Positions 25,616-26,668 of a DNA stretch of 64,000 bases are shown here, one piece after another (the first letter of the stretch is position 1; each line of letters opens with the position of its first letter). Source of the DNA: Chitinophagales bacterium. Lineage in GTDB: Bacteria > Bacteroidota > Bacteroidia > Chitinophagales > LD1. Both the position numbers and the translations under genes were made by a program. Below the pieces are notes generated by a model. That model was not told the DNA's origin. It saw only the letters and a program-made list of their open reading frames with translations, and did not search any database. Where the stretch lies: assembly GCA_046329555.1 (NCBI GenBank), contig JAXLUK010000002.1, positions 128,983 to 192,982 of the forward strand. Reading direction: 5' to 3'.

Positions 25616-26668
25616 TTAATAGACCTTAAAGCCCGAAAATTGTGTAAAGTTATTGGCGCCACTCAAGGTTAAGCTGGTATTGGTACGATTATCTACCCAA
25701 ACCGTTACCACGTCCCCGGCAGCTAATTTAAGGTTGACGCTATGACCCAAAGAAACAAATGATCCGCTGGTAATGGATGGTATCGTTTCATAAATTCCGC
25801 CTTTGACAGTAGTACCGTTTTTCTGAAAGTAAATAGAAACATAACCGGTTAAATAGCCAGAATTGCTGAGCACCACTTCGTTGGCATCAAAGTGATAAAC
25901 ACCGGCAGAGGGAGCGGTAAACTGACCAGTAGTCGTATTATAGGCATTGCCGTCGTTATAGTCAGTATTGGCGTAAATACGTTGTAAGGTACCTGTAGCA
26001 CCGGTAATTCCTGTTCCACCAGATCCATACGAACTAAAGCCAACTCCTGATCCTACGGAACCGGTTGGGCCTGTAGCGCCCGTAGCTCCTGCACTTCCTG
26101 TAGGACCCGTTGGTCCAGTAGGCCCGTTACCACTTCCTGTTGGGCCTGTTGGGCCTGTGGCCCCAACGCTTCCGGTTGGACCTGTTGGGCCGTTACCACT
26201 TCCTGTTGGGCCAGTTACCCCTGTAGCTCCTGTTGGTCCGGTAGCTCCGGTAGCACCACCTGCTGATGATGCAGCAAACAATGCATAAGGCACGGAATTC
26301 AGCGGGGAAGTACCCATGTCAATAAAATTAGTACCTCCGGCAGGGTCAATTTCCACTTTCAGGAAGCGCGAGCCCCCTGCCCAATTGATACTGCTAAAGG
26401 CATTTGCTCCAACCTGAGTGCCTGTACCAATGGCATGCGTAAACAACCCAAATGCATTAGTAGATAGACCGGTTTTAACTTCCTGATACAAAGTACTTCC
26501 ACCAGCAATCTGATCAGAGATGGTGTAGCGGGCGCTAATTGACTGGTTGGCTAAAGCTGCACCGGTATTATTCCTTGCGATAGCCTGATAGTTGATAGAC
26601 TGCGGCACTTGAGCCCATGCGGATACGGCGAAAAACCATACCAGCGTAATAGATAAAATGTTTTTCAT
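25616..26668 (-). CDS. Secreted collagen-like (GPT repeat) protein with C-terminal C1q/TNF-like globular domain
   Basis: It has a signal peptide and ~70 aa of G-X-Y triplets dominated by GPT/GAT. The C-terminal ~125 aa carry C1q-domain hallmarks: [32 protein letters not shown] and a terminal FSGFKVY. Confidence 0.72.
26050..26254 (-). repeat. Collagen-like G-X-Y triplet-repeat coding tract
   Basis: The tract reads [71 protein letters not shown]. The DNA contains internally duplicated blocks (GTTACCACTTCCTGTTGGGCC occurs twice). Confidence 0.8.

Follow-up and report, generated by a model that had tools for sequence, protein, structure and literature searches.

A MAT-related mosaic fibre protein with a collagen stalk and a C1q head, probably attached to the envelope of a Chitinophagales bacterium

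We analysed a 64-kb stretch of DNA from a Chitinophagales bacterium (hereafter the window), and focused on a minus-strand ORF at positions 25616-26668 that encodes a 350-aa protein with a collagen-like stalk and a gC1q head. According to sequence comparisons, this gene is a typical representative of a very large Bacteroidota family of fibres with interchangeable tips. We consider it probable (around 0.7) that its product is a fibre related to the MAT proteins of Bdellovibrio, i.e., a trimer attached to the cell envelope by its N-terminal domain, with the C1q tip facing outward. An initial description made from the letters of the DNA (the sequence-only reading) had compared the protein with BclA of Bacillus. 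"MAT-related mosaic fibre family of Bacteroidota" is a better description of this protein and its relatives than "BclA-like".

Architecture of the protein

The ORF encodes four parts: a signal peptide, an N-terminal domain (N-domain), a G-X-Y tract, and a C-terminal domain. The sequence-only reading had proposed a secreted protein in three parts, and the ORF, the signal peptide and the domain boundaries bear this out. The positions of the parts are:

26612..26668, minus strand: signal peptide, residues 1-19, from sequence reading, with a predicted signal peptidase I cut before Q20
26258..26611, minus strand: N-terminal domain, residues 20-137, from the NF053851 match and the AF2 model
26045..26257, minus strand: collagen-like stalk, residues 138-208, 23 G-X-Y triplets
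25619..26044, minus strand: gC1q globular head, residues 209-350, from Pfam C1q, profile matches in the PDB, AF2, and Foldseek
25616-25618, minus strand: stop codon of the fibre gene, from sequence reading

A glutamine following the signal-peptide cut is the "Q-rule" of Bacteroidota. The fibre signal peptide, with Q20 next, fits this rule, and nearly all members of the fibre family start their mature form with Q. The protein has no C-terminal sorting domain of the T9SS (CTD) at E ≤ 10, either of type A (PF18962/TIGR04183) or of type B (PF13585), in agreement with the earlier remark that none was obvious. It also lacks a lipobox or a recognised outer-membrane targeting signal. We searched the 64-kb window for further fibre paralogues and found none.

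The C-terminal head was matched by the Pfam profile C1q (PF00386) at residues 232-347 with an E-value of 4.5e-9. This profile and that of Collagen (PF01391) had been put forward as checks in the sequence-only reading: the former scored above its cutoff on the head (37 bits versus 23.7), whereas the latter remained below its cutoff on the stalk (17 bits versus 27.2) owing to the shortness of the tract and its interruptions. We then compared a profile built from 21 head sequences with the sequences of the PDB. Its matches comprised C1QL2 (3.6e-14) and some 40 further gC1q chains, including those of C1QL1/3, cerebellin-1/4, adiponectin, the NC1 domains of collagen X and VIII, Caprin-2, EMILIN-1, CTRP5, and C1q A/B/C. 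The terminal FSGFKVY, already noticed for its likeness to C1q proteins, aligned with FSGFLV of cerebellin. The AF2 monomer model of the head is all-beta (pLDDT 89.4, pTM 0.86), and its best matches in the PDB, according to Foldseek, were C1QL1/2/3 (E ~1e-10 to 4e-11, TM 0.74-0.85). The C1q/TNF fold is thus significant both by HMM and by structure prediction. The BclA_C profile (PF18573) did not match the protein at E ≤ 10, and BclA was missing from the PDB sequence matches of the head and from the top 50 fold matches of Foldseek. Together, profiles and model show that the head is a genuine gC1q domain, nearer to animal C1q-like proteins than to BclA. Both place its start at V209 (first strand VGFSS), directly after the last triplet at 208. 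Hence, the head has 142 aa, instead of the ~125 aa initially proposed, and a later 12-residue stretch belongs to the head, not to the collagen. The collagen abuts the gC1q head directly, as in animal C1q-family proteins. To our knowledge, the solved gC1q relatives are all trimeric heads placed behind collagen regions.

The 23 triplets of the stalk are arranged in blocks of 7, 7 and 9, and consist of GPT (10), GAT (6), GSG (3), GSV (2), GVT (1), and GSA (1). Between the blocks, a single Asn is inserted at two sites, each reading GSG-N-GPT, which are 22 residues apart. The abundance of GPT and GAT and the two register breaks had been correctly described from the outset. Glycine periodicity is kept over 7-9 triplets in three successive blocks, which is far beyond chance. 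The stalk also shows weak matches to the collagen regions of Lcl and Scl. A collagen triple helix rises by 0.286 nm per residue; if it forms here, the stalk would be ~20 nm long.

The DNA encoding the stalk repeats with a period of 66 nt (22 residues); two copies share 74% identity, and there are also related copies of 56 nt that are 61-77% identical. The duplicated blocks noted earlier are therefore present, though degenerate, and they look like an old, diverged duplication rather than a near-perfect array prone to slippage. It had also been suggested that the length of the tract varies between strains. This finds no support in the single comparison available: the sole close homologue in 5.8 billion clusters (P0001, 347 of 350 residues identical) has exactly the same tract, and at the DNA level the repeats share only ~74% identity. 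Across the whole fibre family the tract ranges from 33 to 282 aa.

The N-domain was matched by the NCBIfam profile NF053851 (Bdello_MAT_N) at residues 9-87, with an E-value of 6.5e-11 and a score of 42.3 bits, which falls short of the 60 bits required by NCBI; the match spans positions 13-80 of the 162 of the profile. We aligned the N-domains of 33 family sequences, from which the signal peptides had been removed, and 32 of them matched Bdello_MAT_N (best E-value 9.1e-13). These matches make homology with the MAT N-domain of Bdellovibrio likely. No Pfam profile covers the domain in these 33 sequences (13 of them gave merely weak matches to Big_1), and the domain has no sequence relative in the PDB. 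AF2 modelled it as a beta-sandwich of ~105 residues (about 20-124) with six strands (pLDDT 87), and comparisons of this model with the PDB and with viral models revealed no significant fold match. The collagen tract is directly preceded by a neck motif, SVPYALFA, whose family form, (Q/E)LxSVPYALYA, is the most conserved motif of the family. The neck scores a pLDDT below 50 in the AF2 monomer and may be ordered only in the trimer.

A large fibre family and its relation to known systems

A search for homologues yielded 3,976 proteins, most of which are conserved only in the N-domain and the collagen tract (59-65% of the query) and differ in the C-terminal Pfam domain. All share one layout, in which a signal peptide ending in ...A|Q(A/V)PQxxNYQA is followed by the N-domain (~115 aa), the collagen tract, and a head. 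Among the top 120 homologues, which have the N-domain and the collagen tract in common, we found at least nine types of Pfam heads: C1q (15 proteins), Peptidase_S74 (7), PF07603 (6), which we take to be the head type of the Lcl C-terminus, Collar (PF07484, 5), BclA_C (PF18573, 3, i.e., P0022, P0071, and P0107), PF26696, and others. Many heads had no Pfam match at all. None of these 120 proteins has the PF18962 CTD.

The family is widespread. The species genomes of GTDB contain at least 592 fibre loci, almost all of them assigned to Bacteroidota, including Chitinophagales, Flavobacteriales, Bacteroidales, and Saprospiraceae. Tandem arrays of fibres bearing different tips are common (e.g., locus L005). 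When the N-domain profile was searched against 1.84 billion representatives of clusters at 50% identity, 29,111 matched at E ≤ 1e-3 and 24,050 at E ≤ 1e-10, and the domain was almost always placed at residues ~20-140. The literature that we searched held nothing specific to a Bacteroidota family of collagen/C1q fibres, nor did it describe a Bacteroidota member characterised experimentally.

The closest known system is that of the MAT fibres. In Caulton et al. 2024 (PMC10769870), these are described as surface-located trimers with an invariant N-domain that lacks PDB homologues, and with tips that vary between S74, TNF/C1q-like, and C-type lectin domains. The authors propose that the N-domain lies close to the cell, where it would bind a surface element yet to be identified. 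Among the MAT proteins of the FCB group, their Table S3 includes a Saprospiraceae bacterium with a "Collagen-like" tip, and also Kordia algicida, Dokdonia pacifica, Salinivirga, and Patiriisocius. The Bacteroidota fibres resemble MAT proteins by the probably homologous N-domain right behind the signal peptide, the elongated shaft, the swappable C-terminal tips, TNF/C1q-like and S74 domains included, and the occurrence of several paralogues and tandem arrays. They differ in the shaft, which in our protein of 350 aa is a short collagen, whereas MAT proteins of ~1,000 aa have a long beta-helix or meandering trimer. Moreover, the N-domain match is below the threshold and restricted to the first half of the profile, and the host, unlike Bdellovibrio, is no known predator.

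The arrangement of a collagen abutting a C-terminal gC1q jelly-roll is shared with C1QL1-3, the cerebellins, adiponectin, the NC1 of collagen VIII/X, and C1q A/B/C. The likeness to these eukaryotic C1q/TNF proteins extends to profile matches (down to 3.6e-14), to structure (TM ~0.8), and to the conserved C-terminal FSGF motif. Yet, our protein is bacterial, has Thr in place of hydroxyproline at the Y position, carries an additional conserved N-terminal domain for which we propose a role in anchoring, and is only about 20-25% identical to them. Collagen-stalked adhesins of Legionella (Lcl) and of streptococci (Scl) follow a similar logic, with the weak matches in the collagen region, and some members of the fibre family carry the PF07603 head, like Lcl. 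Lcl and Scl differ from the fibre in the head and in the anchoring (T2SS or unknown for Lcl, LPXTG for Scl).

Gene neighbourhood and a small T9SS-CTD partner gene

The fibre gene is the last of a co-oriented run that comprises PorV2, PorU2, a 137-aa ORF, an S8 peptidase, and the fibre. Downstream of the fibre lie a convergent SIMPL/DUF541 gene on the plus strand and then the gene of the Der GTPase; TyrRS and FabF are other housekeeping neighbours in the window. The relevant features are:

34607-35728, minus strand: PorV2 (NF052325, 400 bits)
29399-34606, minus strand: PorU2 (NF052324, 682 bits)
26709..28943, minus strand: S8 subtilase with a T9SS type-A CTD, directly upstream of the fibre gene, not a conserved partner
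26669..26708, minus strand: 40-nt spacer that separates the stop codon of the S8 peptidase from the start codon of the fibre, with no terminator-like hairpin
25572..25587: GC-rich hairpin with T/A runs on both sides, between the convergent fibre (minus strand) and SIMPL/DUF541 (plus strand) genes

The 40-nt spacer carries only a weak -7-like element (TATTTTCG). A scan for sigma-70-type promoters showed no enrichment over shuffled sequences, and its model is not informative for Bacteroidota promoters. Co-transcription of the fibre with the S8 gene is possible, as judged from the spacer. The hairpin behind the fibre gene is likely a bidirectional terminator that closes the minus-strand run.

The sequence-only reading had taken the fibre for the last member of a PorU/PorV-like string. 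Its position at the end of the co-oriented run is correct, but its membership finds no backing in related loci. On the side of the fibre, we studied 88 related loci with flanks of up to 10 kb and 125 fibre ORFs: none has homologues of PorU2, PorV2, the S8 peptidase, or the 137-aa ORF within 10 kb. On the side of PorV2, whose sequence in the window is 100% identical to a protein of a Chitinophagales MAG, we studied the loci of four relatives (85, 65, 64 and 59% identity). All four encode a conserved unit made of a 219-aa protein, PorV2, and PorU2, next to a tyrosyl-tRNA synthetase gene, and a tblastn search found a fibre in none of them. The window likewise has an ORF of ~219 aa upstream of PorV2 and PorU2. 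The relatives at 59-65% have no co-oriented gene behind PorU2. The one at 85% (L089) has a 140-aa ORF and an S8 peptidase, followed, in the place of the fibre, by a 768-aa protein with CarboxypepD_reg, DUF7619, and a CTD; blastn synteny between this locus and the window stops within the S8 gene. A conserved linkage of the fibre to PorU2/PorV2 is therefore not supported.

These data bear on the idea that the fibre is a substrate or product of the PorU2/PorV2 string, in which case PorV2 would act as its shuttle, and PorU2 would link both the fibre and the S8 peptidase to the cell surface. PorU2 and PorV2 are confidently identified, and the fibre gene is co-oriented and starts only 40 nt after the S8 gene, from which no terminator separates it, in a run that ends at the hairpin behind it. 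Nevertheless, the fibre lacks a CTD of type A or B on which a PorU-type sortase could act, the comparison of loci from both sides separates the two sets of genes, and the window contains four genes of CTD-bearing cargo in about 37 kb, so a fibre adjoining T9SS genes is expected by chance. We regard this role as very unlikely. The searchable literature contained nothing on PorU2/PorV2.

Many other genomes of the family have a small gene, named P hereafter, directly upstream of the fibre gene (F), often with a gap of 0-40 nt. Its product has 160-190 aa and consists of a signal peptide, a conserved segment of ~50 residues (pattern ...SSTGG..SLSYTVGEM...ILTQGFQQP), a linker, and a T9SS type-A CTD (TIGR04183, up to 49.7 bits). 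The conserved segment is matched by no Pfam, NCBIfam or PHROG profile. Around one quarter of the Bacteroidota loci have such a gene before the fibre, unlike MAT loci, for which the accessible part of Caulton et al. 2024 (PMC10769870) mentions none. In the sample selected on fibres, P lies directly upstream of 24 of the 106 fibre genes, and 32 of the 42 P genes directly precede a fibre. We drew a second sample on P alone, by scanning metagenome contigs with an alignment of seven sequences; at least 454 loci matched, of which we took 80. In this sample 74 P genes had at least 450 nt of downstream sequence, and in 61 of these (82%) a fibre N-domain follows no more than 250 nt after the stop codon of P. 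In three further cases it lies up to 1.5 kb away, and in the other ten it is absent; two of these ten precede repeat proteins of ~1,290 aa.

Similarity between N-domains does not sort paired from unpaired fibres, the nearest N-domains of the window fibre include both kinds, and a single genome can encode both (e.g., L026 and L029). The window has no P gene, and a search for a partner-like segment in the S8 peptidase gave only weak matches at the level of the CTD. The 137-aa ORF was discarded as a P candidate (18% identity, no conserved motif). We also rejected the idea of a split domain, in which the P segment would be homologous to the fibre N-domain (hhalign probability 0.9%).

The CTD of P and its place before the fibre gene suggest that it might be a T9SS-delivered surface anchor or carrier of fibres. 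We put forward, tentatively, that the CTD-less MAT-like fibres reach the surface and stay on it because their N-domain docks onto a T9SS-exported and surface-anchored P; this may well not be so. If it were, P would correspond to the "surface element" whose identification the MAT authors left to future work, fibres would be exported by a kind of T9SS piggy-backing, and the window fibre, having no adjacent P, would rely on a partner encoded elsewhere in the genome. It is less likely that it relies instead on the CTD-bearing S8 peptidase directly upstream. The tight pairing of P and fibre is the most interesting lead of this analysis, as it provides a concrete and testable candidate for the anchoring of fibres.

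Fibre model, alternatives and meaning

We propose that the protein is exported by Sec and most likely assembles into a homotrimeric fibre. Three gC1q heads would associate and nucleate the short GPT/GAT collagen triple helix of ~20 nm, which would be kinked at the two Asn insertions. At the opposite end, the N-terminal beta-sandwich would tether the fibre to an envelope component. The C1q tip would face outward as a ligand-binding module, adhesin or lectin-like. This assigns to the N-domain the role of a cell-proximal anchoring module.

A protein with this layout could also be secreted without being anchored, either as a soluble or vesicle-borne trimeric lectin of C1q type or as a structural protein of the periplasm. 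Such a fate would be compatible with a Sec signal peptide in a protein where we recognised no outer-membrane targeting signal, lipobox or CTD. It fits less well with the conservation of the N-domain, which across about 24,000 clusters is far stronger than that of the tip and argues for a fixed partner on the producing cell, nor does it match the surface location given for the homologous MAT fibres in PMC10769870. We therefore find an unanchored protein unlikely, though less so than a substrate of PorU2/PorV2. We give very little credence to the idea that the gene is a remnant of a prophage or codes for a phage tail fibre or receptor-binding protein. PHROG families of tail fibres do match the collagen tract and one uncharacterised PHROG matches the C1q head, C1q domains are known as receptor-binding tips of phages (PMC7468147), and the tips of the family include the phage-like S74 and Collar domains. 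But the N-domain is covered by no PHROG, and its pattern occurs in 2 of 2.9 million viral contigs versus at least 592 loci in cellular genomes. The neighbours (Der GTPase, SIMPL, TyrRS, FabF) are housekeeping genes, base composition equals that of the flanks except in the tract of Gly/Pro/Thr codons, and a Sec signal peptide is atypical for virion proteins. On the PHROG, viral-contig, composition and viral-fold evidence, we rejected a phage origin.

Even less probable is a true homologue or orthologue of BclA acquired from Bacillus by horizontal transfer. The resemblance that had motivated the comparison is real at the level of architecture: both proteins have, in this order, an N-terminal attachment region, a GPT-rich collagen tract and a head of the C1q/TNF class, both likely serve in a surface nap or fibre, and the few BclA_C heads of the family could be seen as a link between them. 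However, the head of our protein belongs to Pfam C1q rather than BclA_C, and is closer in sequence and structure to eukaryotic gC1q domains. The N-domain is unrelated to the N-terminal domain of BclA, which has 38 residues and binds BxpB according to PMC10470788, so the attachment partner differs as well. The host is a Chitinophagales bacterium, i.e., of another phylum, and there is no exosporium. Membership in the BclA family is thus refuted and the architectural analogy alone stands. An envelope-attached fibre related to MAT remains the reading that we favour.

The existence of MAT relatives in Bacteroidota is not new, since some of them appear in Caulton et al. 2024 (PMC10769870). The present analysis shows that ~24,000 clusters at 50% identity share an N-domain that has neither a Pfam model nor a solved structure. 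The family ties the collagen/C1q architecture, familiar above all from animal innate immunity and Bacillus spores, to the MAT fibres used by Bdellovibrio in prey recognition. Provided that the tips bind ligands, what environmental Bacteroidota stick to, be it other cells, particles, or hosts, is probably determined in large part by these fast-diversifying fibres.

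T9SS cargo and the PorV2/PorU2 triad

The window is dense in genes for T9SS cargo, of which there are four, and also holds the PorV2/PorU2 genes and a small open reading frame (ORF).

Features of the window and of its closest PorV2 relative
3-5858 (+): Big_5 protein with a type-A C-terminal sorting domain (CTD), >1,950 aa long and running off the window start
8924-15871 (-): 2,315-aa protein whose sole Pfam match is a CHU_C type-B CTD
20605-21906 (+): beta-lactamase-family protein with a type-A CTD
26709-28943 (-): S8 subtilase, T9SS cargo
28977-29390 (-): small ORF of 137 aa between PorU2 and the S8 peptidase
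34607-36523 (-): gene of the ~219-aa protein and PorV2, part of the triad with PorU2
L089:16331-16753: small ORF at the same position in the locus of the relative with 85% PorV2 identity

The ~219-aa protein, PorV2 and PorU2, a putative sortase of the C25 type with 1,700-1,760 aa, form a triad that is conserved in the window and in the loci of four PorV2 relatives (L089-L092). In Chitinophagales it adjoins the tyrosyl-tRNA synthetase gene, at PorV2 identities of 59-85%. The ~219-aa protein had no match in Pfam, and nothing was found on PorU2 or PorV2 in the searchable literature. The first ORF of the triad in the window is listed at 262 aa from a GTG start, whereas it has 219 aa in the relatives, and its true start is therefore probably internal. 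The small ORF, which has 137-140 aa and retains its place in the locus of the 85% relative, matched no family; the N-terminus of its product (…IFIMACAKDQ) resembles a lipoprotein signal.

The small partner gene and the fibre gene

In other genomes, a small partner gene lies directly upstream of the fibre gene, and this gene pair is conserved; the partner gene is absent from the window.

Small partner genes upstream of fibre genes in other genomes
L005:9515-10000: one gene
L006:9441-9962 and 11173-11694: two genes
L069:9295-9903: one gene
L072:9308-9829: one gene

In the partner (160-190 aa), the signal peptide is followed by a conserved segment, which ends in ILTQGFQQP and is covered by no curated model, and then by a T9SS type-A CTD. 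Among metagenome contigs picked on the small partner alone (L095-L174), the fibre gene was directly downstream of 61 of the 74 partner genes (82%).

The best-scoring genome locus, L009 (CAZXFT010000005.1), is a partner-fibre pair from a MAG labelled 'uncultured Bifidobacteriaceae'. Since all the remaining loci are from Bacteroidota, this genome is likely mis-binned or mislabelled.

Fibre arrays and other genes behind the partner

Some loci encode three to five fibres with differing tips in tandem arrays (L005:10001-15933; L027; L086), which fits tip swapping via duplication and recombination. The whole L005 array is headed by a single small partner gene, followed by a C1q-tipped fibre, a fibre with an unassigned tip and two S74-tipped fibres. 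Nearly all family members have one copy of the N-domain, directly after the signal peptide; the top match of the N-domain profile, the homologue P0241 (916 aa), has six matched N-domain stretches in one protein.

Two partner genes of the metagenome sample precede proteins of ~1,290 aa that are not fibres (L101:5701-9591 and L107:5726-9601) and that start with SprB-like repeats (…SVDSTASVCYNDGSITIHPTGG…). Hence, the small partner may also serve other large surface proteins.
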